This document shows positions 3,031-58,521 of a DNA stretch of 64,000 bases, in pieces. Under the pieces are notes generated by a model that worked only from the letters and a program-made list of their open reading frames with translations, did no database searches and had not been told where the DNA came from. How positions within the stretch are numbered: position 1 is the stretch's first letter; every line of letters begins with the position of its first letter. The translations under genes were made by a program, and so were the position numbers. This DNA is from Candidatus Falkowbacteria bacterium. Its GTDB lineage: Bacteria > Patescibacteriota > Patescibacteriia > Patescibacteriales > WJLG01. The DNA lies in NCBI GenBank assembly GCA_963747695.1, contig CAVVFV010000010.1, positions 325,618 to 389,617 on the forward strand, given 5' to 3'.

Positions 3031-3732
3031 ATGGAAACTTTTTACATCAACCCGGAAAACAAAACCGAGCAAGAAGGCGGCCGGATGGAAACGGCGATTT
3101 TCAATGAAGATCATATTGAAAAAACTGTCGAAAAAATAAGAAAGTCGGGAAAAAAATTGGGCGAAGGAAACTACGCTTCAGTTTTAACTTTGTCTGATTC
3201 TTCAAACTATTGCGTCAAAGTAAATAAGGCCAATTCGGGCGACGAAAACGATCCGATCGAAGAGCTTGATTTTATGGAAGTCGCCAGGGACATGGGCATT
3301 AACACGCCGACGCCCCGCGCACTGGTTATTGACGGCGAAGGAGAAAATAAAAAAATTTACACTTTCATGGACACCATTGACGGCCTAAGTTTGCGCAGCA
3401 TCATGGAATCTGATTCGCTGAAAAAAATTCCGGACTACTTTAATTTTTTTGATTTCTTTGAAAAGCTTGAGGCCGATGTAAAAAAAATGAACGAATCAAT
3501 CTATCACCGCGATATCAAGCCGGAAAATATATTGCTTGATAAAAACGGCAATCATTGTATTATCGATTTCGGCCAGTCAAAATGGATTAAAGACTTACAT
3601 TTGAATGAAAATATGACGTTTGCCGGAGATTTAACTAATCTGCGTAAAACCAAACTGCTATTTGCCGATTTTCTAAAAAGCAAGAAGATGGATTTAAAGA
3701 AACAAAGCGAATTACATCAACAAAAAAAATAG
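3031..3732 (+). CDS. Small Hanks-type Ser/Thr protein kinase-like protein
   Basis: Catalytic loop YHRDIKPENILLD and an IIDFG (DFG) motif. The ATG at 3031 is preferred over the TTG at 3019 used by the track. Confidence 0.7.
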   Translation: METFYINPENKTEQEGGRMETAIFNEDHIEKTVEKIRKSGKKLGEGNYASVLTLSDSSNYCVKVNKANSGDENDPIEELDFMEVARDMGINTPTPRALVIDGEGENKKIYTFMDTIDGLSLRSIMESDSLKKIPDYFNFFDFFEKLEADVKKMNESIYHRDIKPENILLDKNGNHCIIDFGQSKWIKDLHLNENMTFAGDLTNLRKTKLLFADFLKSKKMDLKKQSELHQQKK

Positions 3733-3753: not shown

Positions 3754-4191
3754 CTATTTTATTTCGACCATTCTTCTTTCTTTCCCGAGGTGCGCAATTT
3801 TGATCGTTTTTTTCCTCTTCGTTAATGACCCTTTTACTTTCTCCGGCCACTCGATCAAACAGACCGAATCTTGATCGCCAAGATAATCCCCGGCGCCGAT
3901 CGCGGCTAAGTCGCGGGCGGATTTCAGGCGATAGGCATCGATGTGACAGAGGTGTTTGATGGTCGGATTGTTTTTTACCGGATAGATTTTCATCAAGACG
4001 AAAGTCGGACTGTTGATATTACGCTTGATGCCCAGCCCCAAAGCAAAGCCGCGGGCAAAGACAGTTTTTCCCGCGCCCAAGTCTCCGGACAAAGTATAGA
4101 CCTCGCCGCCTAGAGCACGCTTGGCCATGGTTTTGGCCAGCGCAATCGTTTCTTTTTCCGAATGAGTAATTTTTTTCATTTTATGTTTCAC
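3754..4191 (-). CDS. tsaE: tRNA t6A37 biosynthesis ATPase TsaE
   Basis: GDLGAGKTVFARGFA Walker A plus SPTFVLMKIY, the TsaE/YjeE signature. Confidence 0.85.
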   Translation of the reverse strand: MKHKMKKITHSEKETIALAKTMAKRALGGEVYTLSGDLGAGKTVFARGFALGLGIKRNINSPTFVLMKIYPVKNNPTIKHLCHIDAYRLKSARDLAAIGAGDYLGDQDSVCLIEWPEKVKGSLTKRKKTIKIAHLGKERRMVEIK

Positions 4192-5881
4192 CTAAAATTC
4201 TGATGATCGAGCAGAATGGTCTAATGGCTTTTAAAGCCGCTTCGATTTTTTTATCCTTGGGCAATCCCTGCAATTCGACGAAAAAATAATAGTCCCAGGC
4301 TTCCGCAGCCGTCGCTTTGGAATGAAGCTTGGTCAGGTTGATATTCCGCTGGGCAAATTCGTTAAGGATGTCGCGCAGGATGCCGGGACGGTCATAAACC
4401 GCCAAGAGCAGCAGGGTTTTATCCGCGCCCAATTTCTCGGACAATTGCGGGGAATCTTTTTTGGCAATGATGTAAAACTGGGTGAGATTATTTTTTTTGT
4501 CTTCGATATTTTCAAACAAAATTTCCAAGTGATATTTTTCGGCCGCGATCCGGCTGCCGATAAAAGCGACACTGGGGTCGTTACTGGAAAGGATCGCCTG
4601 CACGGTGCTGGACTCGACTTCCAGTTTTGCGGCGGGAAAATTCTGATCAAGCCAATTCCGCGCCTGGGCCAATGGCTGGGCATGCGACTTGACCACTTTG
4701 ATCTGTCGGGCATCTTTGGTCCGCGCCAAAAAATACAAATGCACCGGTAATTCATAAGAACCGACGATCCGCAGCGGATGCCGGACCAGATTGTCCATGG
4801 TTTCCTGGATCACTCCTTCGGTCGAATTTTCCGCCGGCACAATGCCGAAAATCGCTTCGTCATTGGTTACGGCGCTAAAAACTTCAGTGATGGTCGAGCA
4901 AGGCATTTCTTCGGTCGCGCCGGGAAAAACATCGCGCGCCGCTTGATGCGAAAAGGTTCCTTCCGGACCCAAATAGGCGATTTTCCCTCGCAAATTATCC
5001 AATTTGATCGTGCCGGCATTTTTTTTCAATTCCACCGGCTGGCGATCGAGCAAGGCGATCAATTCCACCGCCTTAGCCTGCGCGATGGGAATAAAACTCT
5101 CCATCGCCGCCGCGGTTTCGGCGAAACCGGCGACAAAACCGGTCCGGTCTTTTTTCGCCAACTGCTTGATAATTTTTTTCGCTTCGCCCAAAAATTCTTC
5201 GGTCAAAGCGGCAAAAAAAGGATTGGCCATTTCCAGATCGGCATATAGTTCGGGATTGCCGCCTAAAACTCGACCGGCCACGACGCTCTGCAACCGGAAA
5301 ACCGGCGTGGAAAAAACATTGAGCAGTTCAAAATCCTGTTTCTGGATCGTCCGCGCAAAAATTATATTGATAAAATGAGTAAAGGCTTGAACCACGGCCA
5401 TCTGCCGGTCATGATCAGCCGGCGAGCTATAAATTAGTTTTGCTCCGTTATCTTTAAAAAGTTTGGCCAAATATTTTGTCCACTGATTATCCCGGCCGGA
5501 GCAGAAAACTATCACCTGCTTTTCCAGATTCGACACCAGCGGACCGAAGAGGGGATGCATCCCGGTCACGCCGCAGTCCGATTTGGTTTTCATCATTTCG
5601 GCCATTGGCAATTCTTTGAGCGAGGTTAAATCGCAAAGCAAGGCCGCGGGGCGGACTTCGTCGCGGATTTCCCTAATCACTGCCGTGACGGCCGGGATCG
5701 GCACGCAGATAATGACGATATCGCATTTTTTCGCCAACTGTTTGGGAGTCAATTCGGTTTTCCTGCCCGACACTAAAACTTCGAGTCCTACACCCGCAAA
5801 AAAACTCTTGAACCAGCCGCCTAAACGGCCATTGCCGCCGATAATTCCGATCAGCGGTTTTTTATGATCGATTTTTTTCAT
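4181..5881 (-). CDS. Fused prephenate dehydrogenase (TyrA-like N-half) / prephenate dehydratase with ACT domain (PheA-like C-half)
   Basis: N-half has IGIIGGNGRLGG (Rossmann), GMHPLFGP and PADHDRQMAVVQAFTHF. C-half has KIAYLGPEGTFSHQAA, PAENSTEG and an ACT-like LLLAVYDRPGILRDILNEF. Confidence 0.85.
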   Translation of the reverse strand: MKKIDHKKPLIGIIGGNGRLGGWFKSFFAGVGLEVLVSGRKTELTPKQLAKKCDIVIICVPIPAVTAVIREIRDEVRPAALLCDLTSLKELPMAEMMKTKSDCGVTGMHPLFGPLVSNLEKQVIVFCSGRDNQWTKYLAKLFKDNGAKLIYSSPADHDRQMAVVQAFTHFINIIFARTIQKQDFELLNVFSTPVFRLQSVVAGRVLGGNPELYADLEMANPFFAALTEEFLGEAKKIIKQLAKKDRTGFVAGFAETAAAMESFIPIAQAKAVELIALLDRQPVELKKNAGTIKLDNLRGKIAYLGPEGTFSHQAARDVFPGATEEMPCSTITEVFSAVTNDEAIFGIVPAENSTEGVIQETMDNLVRHPLRIVGSYELPVHLYFLARTKDARQIKVVKSHAQPLAQARNWLDQNFPAAKLEVESSTVQAILSSNDPSVAFIGSRIAAEKYHLEILFENIEDKKNNLTQFYIIAKKDSPQLSEKLGADKTLLLLAVYDRPGILRDILNEFAQRNINLTKLHSKATAAEAWDYYFFVELQGLPKDKKIEAALKAIRPFCSIIRILGET

Positions 5882-5887
5882 CGCTTC

Positions 5888-6781
5888 TTATTTATTTACA
5901 AAATCCAGCCAGGAAAGATATTTCTTGTTTTGGCCGTGGATGGCTGCCTGAAAGGCTTTAGCCAGCTCGGCGGTTACCTTGGACTTTTTAGCATAAGCCA
6001 CCCGGCCAATCTTGCCAATCGCGGTTATTTCCGCCGCCGTCCCGGTAAAGAAGGCTTCATCGAATTTTTTCAATTCGGCGAGCTGGATATCTTTTTCCAC
6101 GACTTTATATTTTAAATCCTTGGCAATTCTGATTATCGAATCTCGGGTGATGCCCGGTAGTATCGATCCTTTTTTAGGCGTGATCACGGTTTTGCCGCGG
6201 ACGAAAAAAATATTTTCTCCCGGCCCTTCGGCAATAAAGCCTCTCGTGTCAAGCAGCACCGCTTCATCGGCCTGATGCTTATGGGCATCAAGGGAAGCGA
6301 GAATCGAATTAAAATAATAGCCGGTAACCTTGGCAGTCATCATCCCGGACCTGGGGTGCAGCCGGATGAATTTAGAAATATGCACTTTGACTTTGTCGTG
6401 ACCCAGATATTTTCCCCAAGGCCAGGCGGCAATGGCCAGCTCAACCGGCGCGCCCACCGGCGAAAGCCCCATTTTTTCTCCGTAAAAAATCAGCGGGCGG
6501 ATATAGCACTCTTGCAATTTATTTTTTCTGATCAACTCTTCGGTCGCGCGGATAATTTCCGCCCGGGAATAACCGATCTTCATCCCCATCACCTCCGCCG
6601 AATGGAACAGGCGATCGACATGTTCTTCAAACCGGAAAATTGCCGGCCCTCGTGACGTATCGTAACAGCGGATCCCTTCGAAAACTCCGCTGCCATAATG
6701 CAGACTATGAGATAACAGCGGCACTTTAGCCGATTTAAGGGAAATAAATTTCCCATCTAACCAAACCAGATTATTTTTCAT
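5888..6781 (-). CDS. ilvE: Class IV (branched-chain-type) aminotransferase
   Basis: 297 aa with FEGIRCY, EAVLLDTRGFIAEGPGENIFFV and LPGITR motifs. Confidence 0.8.
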   Translation of the reverse strand: MKNNLVWLDGKFISLKSAKVPLLSHSLHYGSGVFEGIRCYDTSRGPAIFRFEEHVDRLFHSAEVMGMKIGYSRAEIIRATEELIRKNKLQECYIRPLIFYGEKMGLSPVGAPVELAIAAWPWGKYLGHDKVKVHISKFIRLHPRSGMMTAKVTGYYFNSILASLDAHKHQADEAVLLDTRGFIAEGPGENIFFVRGKTVITPKKGSILPGITRDSIIRIAKDLKYKVVEKDIQLAELKKFDEAFFTGTAAEITAIGKIGRVAYAKKSKVTAELAKAFQAAIHGQNKKYLSWLDFVNK

Positions 6782-6895
6782 ATTACCTAAAATTATTGAA
6801 TTATCTGAGATTTATTATACCTTCCCAGCGTGGCCAGGTCAAAATAAAAACATCCTGCCTAGGTCGGATGTTTAATCTTCTTAGTGGGCAATATA

Positions 6896-6940
6896 GGACT
6901 CGCCAGTGGATGAACCCCCGGCGCCCGGTCGGACTTGCCC
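6896..6940 (-). repeat. tRNA-associated double-hairpin element, copy A (5'-truncated, degenerate)
   Basis: Minus-sense gtccgaccgggcgccgggggttcatccactggcgagtcc matches copies at 23224-23270 and 55761-55806. It is flanked by gggcaa (6886-6891) and ttgccc (6935-6940). Confidence 0.6.
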
Positions 6941-6960
6941 CGCCCCATTTACGTTTTTTG

Positions 6961-7034
6961 TGGATCCAGTAGGATTTGAACCTACGACCTCCTCGGTGTA
7001 AACGAGGCGCTCTAACCAGCTGAGCTATAGATCC
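6961..7034 (-). tRNA. tRNA-Val (anticodon TAC)
   Basis: Hand-folded cloverleaf: GGATCTA/TGGATCC acceptor, GCTC-AGCTGGTTA-GAGC D arm, CCTCG-TTTACAC-CGAGG anticodon arm, GTAGG-TTCAAAT-CCTAC T arm. 74 nt, no encoded CCA. Confidence 0.9.
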
Positions 7035-7049
7035 CCATTATTAAATAAT

Positions 7050-7204
7050 GGTAATTAGACAAATGGGGCGGGGTGAATAAACCGGATGCTCTAACCCGCC
7101 TCGACGAGCTGAAACTCGTCTTCGGCGAGGCGGGCCAACTGAGCTAATTACCCTGAATGCTCCCTGTCCCGCCGTGGCGGGATAACCAGTTGAGCTATAA
7201 GCCC
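7050..7204 (-). pseudogene. Two tRNA 5'-fragments (D-arm consensus) interrupted by GC-rich hairpins
   Basis: Minus-sense GGGCTTATAGCTCAACTGGTTA (7204-7183) is followed by hairpin cccgccacggcggg. GGGTAATTAGCTCAGTTGG (7153-7135) is followed by a 40-nt hairpin (7095-7134), then TTAGAGCATCCGGTTTAT. Neither fragment completes a cloverleaf. Confidence 0.45.
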
Positions 7205-7208
7205 AAAA

Positions 7209-7715
7209 CTATCTTATATACAAATAGATTTTCGGTTGTTCGGGAAGGCTGTCGACTTGGGCCGGGGTCCAGCCCGGCATCGGCCAAGTGTAACAAATTA
7301 CTCTGGCGCCCGGCTTCAATTCCTTTTCCATCTTTACCCGCAATTTTTGCATGATGCGCGGCATCAGAAAAACAAAGATCGCGTCGGCTTCCCCCAAATT
7401 TATCCCCCAAAAATCGCGGAAATAAATTTTCGGCTTATCCTTGCCGCGGAAAAAAATAATCTTGAATTTAGCGATCAAATAGGGGAGCAAGGAAATTTCA
7501 AAGCCTTCGGATACGGCTCCGGCCGCCGCGGCGGCAAAAAGAGTCCGGCCGTCGCCCGCGCCAATGTCAAAAAATTTTTCTCCCGCTTTCAGCCTGGCCA
7601 GCTTGATCGCCCGCTCGACATCTTCCCGATACATCGGCAGCCAAGGAGCCGCCCGCCAAGCCGCGTAAACAAAGGTTAGCCCGAAAATAAAGACAATTAG
7701 ATAAATCCAAATCAT
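7209..7715 (-). CDS. Membrane-anchored class I SAM-dependent methyltransferase
   Basis: N-terminal TM helix followed by FFDIGAGDGRTLFAAA (motif I). Confidence 0.65.
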   Translation of the reverse strand: MIWIYLIVFIFGLTFVYAAWRAAPWLPMYREDVERAIKLARLKAGEKFFDIGAGDGRTLFAAAAAGAVSEGFEISLLPYLIAKFKIIFFRGKDKPKIYFRDFWGINLGEADAIFVFLMPRIMQKLRVKMEKELKPGARVICYTWPMPGWTPAQVDSLPEQPKIYLYIR

Positions 7716-22660: not shown

Positions 22661-22795
22661 AATAAAAGTATAACAAAAAATTGCTTAAACAGCGATTTTC
22701 ATAAAAAAGAGAATAATTTCTAAACCCGTCTGCCGTTATCTCAAAAGCGACCTTTTTAATACAAAGACAGCTCCAATATTGGCGCTGTCTCATGT

Positions 22796-23047
22796 AGCGG
22801 AGTGGGCGGGATCGTTCCCTCGCGGCTCTCGCCTCGCTCCTGACCAGTTCGAGCCCCTGAACGAGCCAAGGGGTTGACTTACATGAGCTGCGGTCGCGCT
22901 CGCGTCGCTTCCGCTCCGCTCACTTGTCCAGAGGCAGCGCCGACCTGCCCCCGGCAGGTCGTCGGCCGCTCGCCTGCGTCTGCCGCCGCCGGAATTGCGG
23001 CGGCAGACGCGTCTCGCTCCTGCAGTTCGAGTCCCGCTTCCTCACAA
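22796..23047 (+). repeat. GC-rich T-loop-ended units U1 (partial) and U2 (full, about 22863-23047)
   Basis: Both end in CTCGCTCCTG(AC)CAGTTCGAG(C/T)CCC. U2 aligns block-by-block with the minus-strand units at 55201-55365 and 55401-55571. 22796-22811 repeats 15 of 16 nt of the tRNA-Asp 3' end region. Confidence 0.7.
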
Positions 23048-23166: not shown

Positions 23167-23223
23167 AAAAATTTTTTTAAATATAAATAAGTGTTTGATT
23201 TTATCCGCCTTGTTCTTATTATA

Positions 23224-23283
23224 GGCCTCGCCAGGGGATGAACCCCTGGCGCCCGGTCGGATGACCGGGCGAACTACCACTCC
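23224..23283 (-). repeat. Double-hairpin element copy B fused to an exact 13-nt copy of the tRNA-Asp 5' end
   Basis: Minus-sense GGAGTGGTAGTTC (23283-23271, identical to 23166-23154) followed by gcccggtcatccgaccgggcgccaggggttcatcccctggcgaggcc. Confidence 0.75.
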
Positions 23284-42661: not shown

Positions 42662-42707
42662 GTCCCCTCTTGGGAGGGGTGCCGAGCCCGGCGAGGCGGG
42701 GTGGGTC
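42662..42707 (+). repeat. E1 repeat, copy 3
   Basis: gtcccctcttgggaggggtgccgagcccggcgaggcggggtgggtc, 16 nt after the glyA stop. Confidence 0.85.
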
Positions 42708-42724
42708 TATTCCCGACATTATTT

Positions 42725-43795
42725 ATGGTTGAAATAATTGTAAATTTAGAAAAAAATGGGTATCCGATAAAAATTGGGATGGGCATTGTTGCTGAAGAAA
42801 ATTTCAAAAAATTCGGTTGCGATAAATGCGCTATTATCACGGATTCAAATGTCGAGAAACTTTACGCCAAAGATTTGGAAAAAAAATTAAATCAAGACGG
42901 GGTTATTTCGGAAATATTTAGTTTCCCGGCCGGCGAGACGTCAAAAACATTTGCCACGGTTATTTCGCTCGGCCGGAAAATGATCAAAAGCGGTTTTGGC
43001 AGAAATTCGCTGATAATCGCTTTGGGAGGCGGGGTGGTCGGGGATATTGCTGGATTTTTGGCCTCGATTTACGAAAGAGGAATCAAATTTGTCCAGATAC
43101 CGACAACTCTGCTGGCACAAGTCGATAGCAGTATCGGGGGGAAAACCGGAGTTGATACTCCCGAAGGAAAAAATTTACTCGGGACTTTTTATCAGCCGCA
43201 GACCGTAATATGTGACATTAATTTTTTGTCGACTTTGCCAAAAAAAGAAATCAAAAATGGCTGGGCGGAATTAATAAAAGATGGGATGATCAAAGATAAT
43301 CGATTTTTTGAATTTTTACAAAAAAAACATTCAAGTCTCGATGAAAAAGATCTAGCGGCAATCATTACCAGCGCGGTCGGGATAAAAGCGAAGATTGTAA
43401 GCCAGGATGAAAGGGAGTCGGGAGAAAGAATCATTTTAAATTACGGACATACAATCGGCCATGCGATAGAAACGATTGAGAACTATAAGATTTCCCACGG
43501 CGAGGCGGTCGCGTTGAGAATGATTTATGAAGGAAAAATTTCTTCCTTGCTTGGTTATTTGACTGCGGCAGATTTAAAAAAACAAAATGAACTCATCCTC
43601 TCGGTCGGTTTACCGGTAAATTATCGAGGTAATATTGATAAATTGATTGAAATAATGCGGCGGGACAAAAAGGCGCTGGATAGCAATCCGCATTTTGTTT
43701 TGCCGATAAAAATCGGAGCGGTTAAAAATGAAGGAACTAAATTTGCTTTTGCCGTTGAAGAGAAGATAATAAAAAGGGCCTTAGAATCGAGATAA
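42725..43795 (+). CDS. aroB: 3-dehydroquinate synthase
   Basis: GGGVVGDIAGFLASIYERGIKFVQIPTTLLAQVDSSIGGKTGV and NYGHTIGHAIE. The ATG at 42725 is used because the track GTG at 42701 lies inside the E1 repeat. Confidence 0.9.
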   Translation: MVEIIVNLEKNGYPIKIGMGIVAEENFKKFGCDKCAIITDSNVEKLYAKDLEKKLNQDGVISEIFSFPAGETSKTFATVISLGRKMIKSGFGRNSLIIALGGGVVGDIAGFLASIYERGIKFVQIPTTLLAQVDSSIGGKTGVDTPEGKNLLGTFYQPQTVICDINFLSTLPKKEIKNGWAELIKDGMIKDNRFFEFLQKKHSSLDEKDLAAIITSAVGIKAKIVSQDERESGERIILNYGHTIGHAIETIENYKISHGEAVALRMIYEGKISSLLGYLTAADLKKQNELILSVGLPVNYRGNIDKLIEIMRRDKKALDSNPHFVLPIKIGAVKNEGTKFAFAVEEKIIKRALESR

Positions 43796-43808: not shown

Positions 43809-43852
43809 ACCCACCCCGCCTCGCCGAGCTCGGCACCCCTCCCAAGAGGGGA
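43809..43852 (-). repeat. E1 repeat, copy 4 (inverted relative to copy 3)
   Basis: The reverse complement tcccctcttgggaggggtgccgagctcggcgaggcggggtgggt differs from copy 3 at a single position. Confidence 0.85.
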
Positions 43853-54594: not shown

Positions 54595-54696
54595 CACCCC
54601 GTCGCCGCGGCGGCGCCACCTCCGCCTCGGCCCGCCTTGCTGAAGCTTTGGCGAGGCAGGCAAGCCTTGGGCGAGACGGGCCTCTCAAGAGGGGAA
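54595..54696 (-). repeat. E1-related repeat, copy 6 (long, degenerate)
   Basis: Begins caccccgtcgccgcgg and ends cctctcaagagggga. The central part is a longer imperfect palindrome (gcctcggcccgccttgc...gcaagccttgggcgag). Confidence 0.6.
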
Positions 54697-54764
54697 TCTA
54701 AACACCGAACTTTGACAATAAAATAATTTGTAATTTTTAATTCTTAATTTGTAATTGATTGAAA

Positions 54765-55142
54765 GGGGATGCCAGGCTTCGATGACAAGAATTATTGCTA
54801 ATACTCAAGGCGTGTCGGATTTCACGTAAAACGGTCCAAAATCACAATTGCGAACAAAATCGCTCGCGGAGCCGCCTTCACTTGGAAGGTTCCGGCTTTC
54901 GCGCCTGTTGCCGCTTAATACCGGCAGCCATTTCGCCTTCTGACTCCTCTGGGGAGGTGGGAGTGTCATTTTAGAGGATCAGGTTGCCAGTGTCGGCTCT
55001 TAGACTGGCAACCGAAACTAAATAGGGCTCGCCATTATTTTTTCGCCTTGCTTTTAGGTAATGGTCAAACTCAAGCTGGGCTAAACTTGTAGTAGTATTA
55101 TCAATAACTTGCCAGACGCGGGTTCAATTCCCGCCATCTCCA
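54765..55142 (+). ncRNA. ssrA: tmRNA (SsrA)
   Basis: 5' GGGGATG pairs with 3' CATCTCC. T arm GCGGG-TTCAATT-CCCGC. Tag reading frame 54850-54918 (GCG AAC ... GCC GCT TAA) gives ANKIARGAAFTWKVPAFAPVAA. Adjacent to smpB. Confidence 0.9.
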
Positions 55143-55193: not shown

Positions 55194-55200
55194 GCTGAAT

Positions 55201-55365
55201 GGTGCGGGAATTGAACTGGTCAGGAGCGAGGCAATGGCCGCGAGGGAACGAGCGGCCGGCAGCCGAGCGTCCGCCAAGCATTCGGGGAATGCTTGGCGCT
55301 GACCCTGGACGAGGGAACGAGCCGCTTTCCGGCGGCGAGTGACCGAGCAACGGTACCCAGACATG
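55201..55365 (-). repeat. GC-rich T-loop-ended unit U3
   Basis: Minus-sense catgtctggg...gtccagggtcagcgcc[hairpin]...ctcgctcctgaccagttcaattcccgcacc. Paralogous to U2 and U4. Confidence 0.7.
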
Positions 55366-55400: not shown

Positions 55401-55571
55401 TGCCGCGGCGGGAATTGAACTGGTAGCGAGCGAGATATGAGGTGAGGCGGAAGCCGAGTCGAATAATCGAGCGACGCCGGACGCGACCCAAGGGAGCGTT
55501 TGGCGGCAACTCTGGACGAAGGAGCGAGGCGGAATTCCGCCGCCGAGCGACTGAGACGGCAGTTCAGATGG
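55401..55571 (-). repeat. GC-rich T-loop-ended unit U4
   Basis: Minus-sense ccatctgaac...gtccagagttgccgcc...ctcgctcgctaccagttcaattcccgccgcggca. Confidence 0.7.
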
Positions 55572-55751: not shown

Positions 55752-55817
55752 AAGGGTTCGCCCGGTCATCCGACCGGGCGCCCGGGGTTCATCCCCGGGC
55801 GAGTCCCTCCCGGACCA
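55752..55817 (+). repeat. Diverged copy of the tRNA-Leu 3' end with double-hairpin element copy C inside the T-loop
   Basis: aagggttcg[cccggtcatccgaccggg cg cccggggttcatccccggg]cgagtccctcccggacca, compared with the genuine 3' end gtgggttcgagtcccacctggacca 40-100 nt upstream. Confidence 0.75.
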
Positions 55818-55905
55818 CATAAATAAATTAAAAATTAAAAATTAAGAATTAAAAATGACAGCTTGATTTTTTTTGAGATCGCTGATATTATTGTATTTGT
55901 AATTT

Positions 55906-57264
55906 TTAACTTTTCATTTTTAATTGAATTTTGCGGGTATCGTATACCGGTATTATGCCACCTTGCCATGGTGGAGAAACGGGTCCAATTCCCGTTACCC
56001 GCTCACTAATCATACAAGCCTCTTTTTTAGGAATTTTTTTTAACGCGAAGCGCAGCTCCACGTAAGGTTTAATGGGCACAAATTTAAGTTTTCCGGTTTT
56101 TAAAAACAAGTTCGAGCCGCAAATTTTACGCAACGAAGATTTTTTGGAGGATAAGTCGCCAGTTTTCACTGTTTCATCCAATAAAACTGCATCTTTTATC
56201 CAATTTTGGAGAGGTTCGAGCCAAGCGACAACCCCCTTGTTTAAGCTGGCCATTTTTTCCTCTAAATCCCTCTTCTGTAAGACAAGCTTTCTCTTTTCTG
56301 CCCGATAAACCTCGCGGTCGATATCTTGCTCCAAAAGGGCATCAAGAAGGACACGGAGCTTGTTGGAAATGGCCGCTATCTCCGCTTTGATCGCTTGGCT
56401 CTCCGTGCCTGACGATTGGAGTGCCTCTTTTTCATCCTTTTCCGCCATCTTCAATAATTCTGTGGCGCAATCGGCAGGCAAAATGAACTCTTTTAGGATA
56501 TCCGGCAATTGGCCGGTTAAATCATCTTCTTTGACGCAGGGTTGGGAACAGGTCCCTCTTTTTTTTGTACAACGGTAATAAGCGTAGCGATGAACATTAC
56601 CGTTCTTTTGATGCTTAATTTTAACTTCTCCGGTTATGGCGCAACCGCACTCATCGCACCGGATAAGCCCGCAAAAAACTTTTGGCTCACCCTTTGGATT
56701 TTTAGGCGGTTTGCCACGCTCATTTAATACTTTTTGAACTTTATCAAAAAGCTGTTTGGATATAATCGGCGTATGTTTGCCTTCGTGAAGCTCTCCGTCA
56801 TAGCGAAACAAGCCGAAATAGAAAGTGTTGGTTAAAATATACGTCACGCGGTCGCGCGATATGGTTTTGCCAGATCTGGTATGGATGCCGCGCTCGGCCA
56901 AAAATTTCGCTACGTCCTCAAGGCGGGTGTCGCCATTGGCGTAATACTCAAACGCTTCGCGAACGGCTTTCGCGATTTTTTTGTCGACGACAATCGTCTT
57001 GTATCTCCGGTCGTTGAAATAGCCGACGGGCGCGCGCGAAGGATATTCGCCGTTTTTAACTTTTTCATTAAGGCCGCGCCTGGTGTTTGTGCTTAGGTCG
57101 ATAATAAACTGGTTGGCCATGCCAAACTCGACGCTCATCAGCAGAATATTGTCCGTCGAGCGATAACTGCGGTCGTGGGTTTGGATGTGCTGGATTATCC
57201 CCCGCTGGAGAAACCAGCTAATTTGCCCGCCGTCGACGGGTATAATGGTCCAGGAATCCTGCAC
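55906..57264 (-). pseudogene. Large serine recombinase, 5'-truncated by the IS element
   Basis: Recombinase domain (PVGYFND...ILTNTFYFGLFRY), zinc ribbon (CGLIRCDECGCAI...YYRCTKK) and coiled-coil are present. The N-terminal catalytic-Ser region is missing, and the reading frame abuts the IS left end. Confidence 0.75.
55933..56003 (+). tRNA. tRNA-Gly (anticodon GCC)-like, non-canonical T-loop
   Basis: GCGGGTA/TACCCGC acceptor, CCACC-TTGCCAT-GGTGG anticodon arm, ACGGG-TCCAATT-CCCGT T arm (C where U55 is expected), weak 3-bp D stem. It lies antisense inside the 3' end of the recombinase ORF. Confidence 0.6.
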
Positions 57265-57314
57265 ACATTTTGACCCATTAAAAAGTTGGATTCGGGGTGG
57301 TATAATAACCCCAT

Positions 57315-57653
57315 ATGAGTAAACAAAACAAAGTATCCAAAGAAGAGAAAGCTAAGATCGTTCTAACCGTCCTGCGGGGCGAAAAGACTGTCAGCGAGAT
57401 TGCGGCGCAATACAGTGTTCATCCCAACCTGATAACCCGCTGGAAACAGACAGCCACCGAAAGCATGGCCGAGCTGTTTGAAGACAAGCGCAATAAGATT
57501 GAAAAAGACAAGTTTCAAGAGCAAGAACAACTGGTAGACAGGCTGTATAAATTGGTTGGCCAGCGAGACATTGAGCTCGACTGGCTCAAAAAAAAATTAT
57601 CAATCTTTGACGATGATCGACCGGCTAAAATTGGTCGACCGAGAAAATCCTGA
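57315..57653 (+). CDS. IS3-family transposase OrfA (HTH)
   Basis: KEEKAKIVLTVLRGEKTVSEIAAQYSVHPNLITRWKQ followed by a leucine-zipper-like region. Confidence 0.85.
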   Translation: MSKQNKVSKEEKAKIVLTVLRGEKTVSEIAAQYSVHPNLITRWKQTATESMAELFEDKRNKIEKDKFQEQEQLVDRLYKLVGQRDIELDWLKKKLSIFDDDRPAKIGRPRKS

Positions 57654-58521
57654 TATCACTCTGACCCGCCAGACTGAATTGCTGGACATCTCCCGCTCCC
57701 GCCTGTATTACCAGACCGAAGTCAGCGAGAGGGATCTGCTCATTATGAATCTGATTGATGAAATATATACGGAAAATCCAAGCTACGGCAAGAGGACGAT
57801 AGCGGCCATTATCAGGCGCGACCATAAAATTCCGGTTGGTAAAAAACATGTCCGGACGCTAATGATCAAGATGGGTATTACGGCGATATATCCGAAGAAA
57901 AAGAGGGATTTGAGCCAGCCGGACAAACAGCATAAAATTTATCCGTATCTGCTCCGCGGACTATCAATCACCAGGTCGAATCAGGTTTGGAGCACGGATA
58001 TCACCTACATCAGATTAGAACACGGCTTCTGCTATTTAACGGCTATCATCGATTGGCATTCGCGCTATGTCATTGCCTGGGAATTGTCTAACACATTAGA
58101 TATCGATTTTTGCTTGCGAGTTCAAGAGCGAGCCTATGCCTTGGCAATCCCTGAGATTTTCAACTCTGATCAGGGCAGCCATTTTACCAGTCCGAAATTC
58201 ACCGCCGCCAGTCTGGAAAAAGGCGTCAAAATCAGCATGGACGGCAAAGGCCGCTGTTTGGACAATATCTTCATTGAGCGATTGTGGCGGACAGTTAAAC
58301 AGCAGGATGTTTACATCAAGCACTACGAATCGGTGGCTGAATGCCGAGCCGGCTTAACGAAATTTTTTGACAGCTACAACAATTACCGTCCGCATCAGTC
58401 GCTCAACTACCTTACTCCCGCCGAAGCCTATTTCGGCCAAAACAAAAAAACTGCCTTTACAGAGCAGCTTAATATACCAAGCTTTAATTTAAATGCCGTC
58501 CTGACCAACCCAACTATTTAA
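57556..58521 (+). CDS. IS3-family transposase OrfB (DDE integrase core)
   Basis: WSTDITYI (D), NSDQGSHFTS (D), IERLWRTVKQQ (E). Presumably expressed as an OrfAB fusion across the A9 run at 57588-57596. Confidence 0.85.
   Translation: MASETLSSTGSKKNYQSLTMIDRLKLVDRENPDITLTRQTELLDISRSRLYYQTEVSERDLLIMNLIDEIYTENPSYGKRTIAAIIRRDHKIPVGKKHVRTLMIKMGITAIYPKKKRDLSQPDKQHKIYPYLLRGLSITRSNQVWSTDITYIRLEHGFCYLTAIIDWHSRYVIAWELSNTLDIDFCLRVQERAYALAIPEIFNSDQGSHFTSPKFTAASLEKGVKISMDGKGRCLDNIFIERLWRTVKQQDVYIKHYESVAECRAGLTKFFDSYNNYRPHQSLNYLTPAEAYFGQNKKTAFTEQLNIPSFNLNAVLTNPTI

Follow-up and report, generated by a model that had tools for sequence, protein, structure and literature searches.

The subject of this work is a tRNA-Val locus in a 64,000-nucleotide stretch of DNA of Candidatus Falkowbacteria bacterium (assembly GCA_963747695.1, contig CAVVFV010000010.1, positions 325,618 to 389,617), hereafter the window, where one intact tRNA gene is surrounded by a dense patch of tRNA gene fragments and GC-rich hairpins. 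The G+C content of the window is 44.5%. The host is bacterial, since the window encodes tmRNA and SmpB, and the nearest loci found come from metagenome-assembled genomes of Patescibacteria. The genes on the minus strand follow in the order rplS, tRNA-Leu(GAG), a methyltransferase-like gene (168 aa, 7209–7715), the patch, a hairpin with a T run, a strong promoter, and the genes for a class IV aminotransferase and a prephenate dehydrogenase/dehydratase.

The tRNA-Val gene (6961–7034, minus strand) was called by ARAGORN as tRNA-Val(TAC), corresponding to the anticodon UAC, and matched Rfam RF00005 with 74 bits over model positions 1–71. Judged by its sequence, it is the sole functional tRNA predicted within the patch. 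The gene is enclosed by a perfect 13-bp inverted repeat with arms 110 nt apart. In the sense of the tRNA, the left arm is CCCCGCCCCATTT (7061–7073) and the right arm is AAATGGGGCGGGG (6938–6950); in ascending coordinates, the repeat reads CCCCGCCCCATTT at 6938–6950 and AAATGGGGCGGGG at 7061–7073. None of 2000 dinucleotide-preserving shuffles of the region 6880–7210 contained a perfect inverted repeat of at least 13 bp (the shuffle maximum was 12), so the repeat is not a product of chance. The whole 331-nt stretch folds with an energy of −143.9 kcal/mol, z = −6.8 relative to shuffles.

The patch had been noticed in a preliminary description of the window, and as an observation it is confirmed: all sequence strings listed there were found where they had been placed, including the 13-bp repeat around tRNA-Val, the hairpin CCCGCCGTGGCGGG at 7168–7181, the 40-nt two-tier hairpin at 7095–7134 and two tRNA-like 5′ starts on the minus strand. 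A 9-bp pairing between 7050–7058 and 7144–7152, described as closing the second of these starts, is also present, but perfect repeats of at least 9 bp occur in 12% of the shuffles, and the pairing by itself is not significant. The patch reaches farther than had been noted. A tRNA 3′ end begins at 6885, and a hairpin followed by a T run (6841–6873, minus strand; inverted repeat I3) closes the transcription unit as a terminator. After this hairpin comes the aminotransferase promoter at 6814–6842 (TTGACC-17-TATAAT, 11 of 12 matches), and no consensus promoter match was found within the repeat-bounded segment. The sequence on both sides is reproduced exactly in an independent Logan assembly of run ERR11748453, in which the break between two contigs falls within tRNA-Val.

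The same slot, adjoining the methyltransferase gene, was collected from 12 related lineages in which the methyltransferase is 67–79% identical. Three types of acceptor stem recur among the tRNA-Val sequences of the slot, namely a (GGGCTTR), a-prime (GGGTRRT) and b (GGAYNNN), and the intact gene of the window is of type b. The comparison demonstrates the identity and the positional orthology of the two fragments, which on sequence grounds are remnants of tRNA-Val(UAC) paralogues. An Ile- or Lys-like identity had been considered for them previously; both are of the Val(UAC) type instead.

Fragment 1 (7157–7204, minus strand), a remnant of type a, is composed of the acceptor 5′ strand, D stem and D loop (GGGCTTATAGCTCAACTGGTTA, 7183–7204), a GC hairpin of 20 nt that interrupts the D loop (7163–7182) and the D-stem 3′ strand GAGCAT (7157–7162), where the remnant ends. 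It starts 4 nt (TTTT) past the methyltransferase stop codon, the same as the intact tRNA-Val of L088, and relatives have an intact gene where fragment 1 lies. L004 has the first 22 nt of fragment 1 unchanged, followed by a D-loop hairpin of 20 nt and ACAGGGAGCAT, and runs on through an anticodon arm with TAC. The homologues in L004 and L094 continue into TCCGG-TTTACAT-CCGGA, which is the Val(UAC) anticodon arm. Hairpins of the type found in fragment 1 (CCTGCC..GGCAGG) also occupy the D loop in L004, L094 and L096.

Fragment 2 (7078–7153, minus strand) is the 5′ half of a type a-prime gene, according to its homology to L093, L094, L095 and L099. It consists of GGGTAATTAGCTCAGTTGG (7135–7153), a 40-nt two-tier palindrome in the D loop (7095–7134) and TTAGAGCATCCGGTTTA (7078–7094), and stops in the anticodon loop. 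The same 19 nt are present in L093, where they are followed by a palindrome at the identical site and then by TTAGAGC; intact genes of the a-prime type (GGGTGAT / GGGTAGT) are found in L094, L095 and L099. On the other side of the working gene, the sequence ...GAGTCCTATATTGCCCA (6885–6901, minus strand) reads as a tRNA 3′ end made up of the last 4 nt of the T loop (GAGT), the T-stem 3′ strand CCTAT, the acceptor 3′ strand ATTGCCC and the discriminator A. The strand ATTGCCC (6886–6892) pairs with GGGTAAT of fragment 2 over 7 bp with one G-U pair, and the homologous 3′ element in L088–L092 ends in ATTACCCA, an exact complement of GGGTAAT (ATTACCC in L088). The pairing of the acceptor strands points to one a-prime gene split by an insert of ~200 nt. 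The working type-b gene lies in this insert, as do the arms of the 13-bp repeat and what is probably another 3′ remnant. This other remnant, GTCTAATTACCATTA (7046–7060, minus strand), resembles the ..GTCCTAYATTRCCCACTA 3′ ends of L088 and of copy A of the repeat described below, and is complementary over 9 bp to the beginning of fragment 2; its reading as a degraded tRNA 3′ end is tentative because a pairing of this length arises so often in shuffled sequence.

The split a-prime gene is without the anticodon-stem 3′ strand, the variable loop and the T-stem 5′ strand. ARAGORN in the default, intron and pseudogene modes reported tRNA-Val alone and neither of the fragments, and no second Rfam tRNA match was obtained in the patch even at E ≤ 10. 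In fragment 2 joined to the 3′ element, the D-loop hairpin was also excised in silico in combination with every second deletion, and ARAGORN called none of the 1241 resulting variants as a tRNA. A group I intron was rejected as well, as no Rfam intron family was matched at E ≤ 10 in 6780–7320. The absence of a reconstructable tRNA is thereby demonstrated for these pieces. The earlier view of the fragments as non-functional tRNA debris is borne out, and its alternative, an unusual tRNA-gene architecture that works, fails on the excision variants and on the missing anticodon-stem 3′ and T-stem 5′ strands.

The content of the slot varies considerably. Six lineages (L003, L085/86, L087, L095 and L099) have a single plain tRNA-Val(TAC) after the methyltransferase gene, without any remnant. 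In L088-92, an intact tRNA-Val is followed by a remnant without its 5′ part; L094 has two intact tRNA-Val genes and one remnant; and in L004 and L096-98, one remnant precedes an intact tRNA-Val. In L093, a remnant is followed by an open reading frame (ORF) of the GIY-YIG type, and the contig ends there, so that an intact copy downstream is possible. The extent of the remnant is different in every lineage, and no intact hairpin-bearing tRNA was seen among the 12 lineages. The tRNA-Val alleles are mosaic between lineages; the anticodon arm and T arm of the window's type-b gene are identical to those of the intact downstream tRNA-Val of L004. Such variation from lineage to lineage is what recombination or turnover would give, in line with the recombination hotspot proposed earlier as one of two alternatives, and the preliminary interpretation as a whole is partly supported. 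The fragments themselves are invariant in three comparisons: identity is 33/33 between the window and L004, 26/26 between the window and L093 and 34/34 between L004 and L094. In the methyltransferase gene, by contrast, four-fold degenerate sites are saturated, with 40–62% identity among these lineages.

Genes of the homing-endonuclease kind are found at these tRNA loci in the relatives. The GIY-YIG nuclease ORF of L093 (3140–3391, 48 bits) contains an in-frame TAG; it is fused to the truncated tRNA-Val fragment, starting directly behind the D arm, and is cut off by the end of the contig. In L085, L086 and L095–L098, a LAGLIDADG-type ORF stops a few bases short of tRNA-Leu(GAG) (about 1680–2340 in L085), and L087 has a reverse-transcriptase ORF upstream of rplS. 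In L099, two tandem direct-repeat GC hairpins (GTCCGCCgtagc...GGYGGAY, 3125–3185) lie immediately 3′ of the intact tRNA-Val, and represent a double hairpin different from that described below. On the downstream side of the slot, tsaE overlaps the tRNA 3′ end (CACATG) in most of the relatives compared (L004, L085–L099). In the window, the genes for the aminotransferase (5888–6781) and prephenate dehydrogenase/dehydratase (4181–5881) lie between tRNA-Val and tsaE, and L003 likewise has an aminotransferase gene in this place. Given the overlap in most relatives, the aromatic amino-acid genes look inserted at the tRNA-Val locus.

The hairpins that interrupt the fragments belong to dispersed repeat families. 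The palindrome of fragment 2 (7095–7134, imperfect and GC-rich) has the terminal motif CCCGCCTCG, which occurs five times in the window versus 0.65 expected; four of the five occurrences are in palindrome arms, namely those of fragment 2 and of the repeats flanking aroB. The 13-nt terminus CCCGCCTCGCCGA of the fragment-2 palindrome is the inner end of the ~45-bp inverted repeats flanking aroB. The insert at the identical D-loop site of L093 is the reverse complement of the window palindrome, with arms matching at 19/19 and 18/19 positions (alignment score 65 to the reverse complement versus 45 to the sense strand), and it has an extra 29-nt palindrome nested in its centre.

The gene aroB itself (3-dehydroquinate synthase, 42701–43795), located between glyA and folD, is nested in near-perfect GC-rich inverted repeats (42663–42706 / 43809–43852) of about 45 bp, or ~65 bp with indels, each arm with its own hairpin CCCCTCTTGGGAGGGG. 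This layout matches that of tRNA-Val. A GC-rich multi-hairpin block between smpB and tmRNA (54600–54700; ..GGCGAGGCAGG.., CCTCTCAAGAGGGG) is related to the aroB-flanking repeat. Another GC-rich region of ~270 nt (22780–23047, plus strand), convergent with tRNA-Asp, has z = −4.6 and a T-arm-like end ...GCAGTTCGAGTCCCGCTTCCTCACA; it shares a ~50-nt module (CGTTCCCTCGCGGC..GCCTCGCTCCTGACCAGTTCRA) with 55200–55345 (minus strand) and has no Rfam match at the gathering threshold. The tmRNA T arm, GTTCAATTCCCGCC, is repeated downstream of its gene in two partial copies, both inverted (55122–55135, 55204–55216, 55407–55420).

The second family is a double hairpin in which hairpin 1 (GCCCGGTCATCCGACCGGGC) and hairpin 2 (GCCNGGGGTTCATCCCCNGGC) are set inside a T-loop sequence, with GGTTC before them and GAGTCC after them. 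The window holds three copies, each in the GGTTC/../GAGTCC context beside tRNA genes. Copy A (6902–6933, minus strand) has the 3′ half of hairpin 1 (TCCGACCGGGC, 6923–6933), 11/11 identical to copies B and C, and a complete hairpin 2 (GCCGGGGGTTCATCCACTGGC, 6902–6922). Copy B (23221–23283, minus strand, 77.5 bits) comprises the first 13 nt of tRNA-Asp (GGAGTGGTAGTTC), the double hairpin and GAGGCCTAT, and is located ~55 nt upstream of the intact tRNA-Asp. Copy C (55754–55819, plus strand, 85.2 bits) comprises GGGTTC, the double hairpin and GAGTCCCTCCCGGACCACA; it lies 43 nt downstream of the tRNA-Leu(UAA) gene, whose T arm and 3′ end it duplicates with 23/25 matches. In the relatives, the double hairpin is found after tRNA-Val in L088, L094 and, in a divergent form, L004, and after tRNA-Leu(GAG) in L094. 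The 13-bp repeat around tRNA-Val was considered as a possible hairpin 1 of this unit and rejected, since copy A keeps its own window-type half of hairpin 1 adjoining the repeat.

A covariance model (R1) was built from four copies, with copy A and the second L094 copy left out. It recovered both, copy A at 6893–6941 (35 bits, E = 1.3e-7) and the L094 copy with 34 bits, and plain T arms of real tRNAs align to the flanks of the model with the hairpins deleted. Across the copies, 92% of stem cells are paired and six pairs are changed on both sides; the observed percent paired and covariation score were reached in 0 of 500 shuffles, and six double-changed pairs in 2 of 500. The aligned copies indicate that the stems are kept by compensatory change. 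Rfam searches of the patch and the double hairpins, at the gathering threshold and at E ≤ 10, gave the hairpins nothing beyond chance-level matches. A metagenome scan with the methyltransferase alignment, based on generic S-adenosylmethionine-binding motif patterns, yielded only relatives of ≤45% identity, none with the double hairpin, and viral contigs scanned with one pattern for hairpin 2 and another for the D-loop hairpin contained neither. In a census of perfect GC hairpins, in which imperfect stems are missed, 6 of 23 were within 300 nt of RNA genes (9% of the window), a suggestive association.

These data demonstrate that the hairpins belong to repeat families, that they occur in both orientations and that they are repeatedly associated with tRNA-loop sequences. 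The dispersed copies, both orientations and nesting are characteristic of DNA palindromic repeats and not of a conserved RNA domain. By analogy, the closest in kind would be REP/MITE-like palindromes (repetitive extragenic palindromic sequences and miniature inverted-repeat transposable elements) together with the mitochondrial double-hairpin and hairpin-forming elements. With the REP/BIME/REPIN families and the Rickettsia palindromic elements, the window palindromes share the form of short, GC-rich, hairpin-forming imperfect palindromes, the several dispersed copies, the presence of both orientations (here at homologous sites), nesting and clustering, and the ability to sit in RNA or protein genes without a coding function. 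Unlike the REP/MITE types, they recur in the DNA that encodes tRNA D loops and T loops, no transposase of the RAYT type or of any other kind that could move them was identified among 19 ORFs, and their copies were counted in 64 kb. Double-hairpin elements (DHEs) are known from Allomyces mitochondria. They and the repetitive hairpin-forming elements (RHEs) of sponge mitochondria (PMC2800124) resemble the double hairpin of the window as units of two adjacent GC-rich hairpins dispersed in intergenic DNA and RNA genes, many of them beside tRNA genes and tied to rearrangement. However, these elements are organellar and have no sequence relationship to the window unit, which is embedded in a T-arm context.

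Three further systems are comparable in part. Partial tRNA copies beside an intact gene, among them copy C, are like the tRNA pseudogene fragments that result from duplication or integration, but the Val remnants are mostly 5′ parts, bear palindromes and have no adjacent integrase. Phage T4 SegB is a GIY-YIG enzyme encoded within a tRNA cluster (PMC2330249) that drives segmental amplification (PMC13096335); the GIY-YIG and LAGLIDADG ORFs abutting tRNA genes of the relatives, the mosaic tRNA-Val alleles and the tandem duplicates recall such homing endonucleases, although an endonuclease gene is absent from the Val locus of the window. Split tRNAs and mobile tRNA introns of archaea (Nanoarchaeum; intron transposition in Thermoproteales) have been summarised (PMC10714607). 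They too feature GC-rich complements flanking the halves and loop-positioned inserts acting as mobile units; here, in contrast, the host is a bacterium, the halves do not sum to a tRNA, and no bulge-helix-bulge motif or complete gene was found.

The locus is probably best understood as a tRNA-Val(UAC) site under gene turnover, whose redundant copies bear palindromes of dispersed families, and which contains no tRNA introns. Under this scheme, three tRNA-Val paralogues (a, a-prime and b) would have held the slot between the small methyltransferase gene and the next gene. Fragment 1, in the ancestral place, would be what is left of version a. Version a-prime would have been split, with its 5′ half left as fragment 2, its 3′ end as 6885–6901, the middle deleted and the insert with the repeat-flanked working gene in between. 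The turnover of the paralogues and the fragments' loss of function are demonstrated, and the mechanism behind them is a proposal. Palindromes may insert into, or recombine at, the highly conserved DNA coding for the tRNA loops; such insertions may persist only in redundant copies, which would be eroded by deletions afterwards. The duplicates could be created by nuclease-driven breaks and repair, and homing-endonuclease genes do adjoin these tRNA loci in relatives.

Some of the results weigh against gene turnover by mobile palindromes. No transposase able to move REP-like elements was identified among the 19 ORFs screened, which were selected near the loci within the window; an IS3-type transposase and an ORF resembling a serine recombinase are among them, but no Y1 transposase. 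We infer the mobility of the palindromes from their distribution, since none of them was shown to have an empty site or a duplicated target. The intact tRNA-Val genes of the relatives represent ‘empty’ D and T loops, and no pair of alleles differing solely by the insert was found. The 13-bp repeat has no second copy in the window. Finally, the fragments are too conserved for old pseudogenes, which implies that either inactivation is recent and recurs or the fragments are under selection. Because the spacers and hairpin sequences differ, the unit as a whole is unlikely to have been transferred recently. The lack of an intact hairpin-bearing tRNA in the 12 lineages, together with the six lineages without a remnant, favours recurrent young remnants over selection.

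A variant of the turnover scheme deserves mention as possible, if doubtful. The palindromes may be a family of small mobile elements in Patescibacteria, homing specifically to D-loop and T-loop DNA (GGTTA/GAGC, GTTGG/TTAGAGC, GGTTC/GAGTCC), or else the hairpin-expanded pieces may have been selected as new tRNA-derived RNA. If true, homing palindromes that repeatedly inactivate redundant tRNA copies would account for the young appearance of all remnants.

Unlikely, in our estimation, is a functional RNA structure. Together with the 13-bp repeat, the hairpin-bearing pieces would then serve as a structured leader and trailer, with the tRNA-Val cloverleaf held out on a long stem for processing of the RNase III/RNase P type, or would act as tRNA-like regulatory or decoy RNAs. 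The strongly negative folding score fits this proposal, as do the repeat stem enclosing a correct cloverleaf and the terminator after the last piece, which places all parts in one transcription unit. The 100% conservation of the fragments beside saturated synonymous sites also agrees with it, and so do the conserved positions of the D-loop and T-loop hairpins, whose sequences change with compensation. On the other hand, no single piece is common to all lineages, with six having a bare tRNA-Val, and the remnants vary in extent from lineage to lineage, as deletions would give. The fragment-2 palindrome is in opposite orientations in two lineages, and C-A mismatches occur in the sense-strand stems of the L004 D-loop hairpin and of hairpin 2 in L088, which RNA-level selection would disfavour. 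The 13-bp repeat is absent from all relatives' loci collected.

A mobile cassette, which we regard as quite improbable, would explain 6938–7073 as a small MITE-like element with 13-bp terminal inverted repeats, or as the footprint of an integrating element, that brought its own tRNA-Val into the resident tRNA-Val gene and replaced the destroyed function. The segment does sit between the 5′ half and the 3′ end of the a-prime gene, with a possible 2-bp duplication (TTCA/../CAAG), and the b gene of L004 starts within the 3′ acceptor strand of the old gene. Hairpin-bearing remnants are located upstream of a type-b tRNA-Val in four lineages (the window, L004, L094 and L096-98), but L088-92 and L093 have such remnants with no type-b gene visible. 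The nesting of aroB between long inverted repeats also speaks for a cassette. The b genes of the relatives, however, lack repeats of this kind, and with respect to tsaE they are placed just where the a and a-prime genes are, so that they look like resident alleles; furthermore, no other copy of the repeat was found in the window or in any fetched locus. As regards a mover, a large serine-recombinase-like ORF (with Recombinase and zinc-ribbon domains) and an IS3-type transposase pair are found directly beside tRNA-Gly(GCC) at 55906–58521, a point in favour, but no recombinase was found at the Val locus. Integrases that target tRNA genes reportedly leave duplicated 3′ parts. The Val remnants are 5′ parts without an adjacent recombinase. 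Copy C at tRNA-Leu(UAA), on the contrary, is a 3′ repeat of the integrase kind (23/25), with the sole recombinase-like ORF beyond tRNA-Gly, ~190 nt from the repeat, and an integrase footprint suits this copy better than the Val locus.

An archaeal-type split or multi-intron tRNA, with fragment 2 and the 3′ element as exons joined via the 13-bp complements and the hairpins spliced out, is highly improbable and largely refuted: GC-rich complementary 13-mers do follow the 5′ half (3 nt after it) and precede the 3′ part, as in the split tRNAs of Nanoarchaeum, the acceptor strands are complementary and the inserts are at loop positions, but the host is bacterial, as tmRNA and SmpB attest, the homologues in L004, L094, L096 and L088 are without one or the other acceptor strand, and a group I intron signal is missing.

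If gene turnover is the correct explanation, the tRNA genes of reduced Patescibacteria genomes are not static, and paralogues would be gained, inactivated by palindromes and eroded in one and the same slot, with the repeats preferring the most conserved loop-coding DNA. Remnants of this kind could be mistaken for split or intron-bearing tRNAs during annotation, and contig breaks occur at the locus during assembly. The turnover of tRNA-Val genes would bear on the biology of selfish DNA in tiny genomes, for which the perfect conservation of the fragments presents a testable puzzle.

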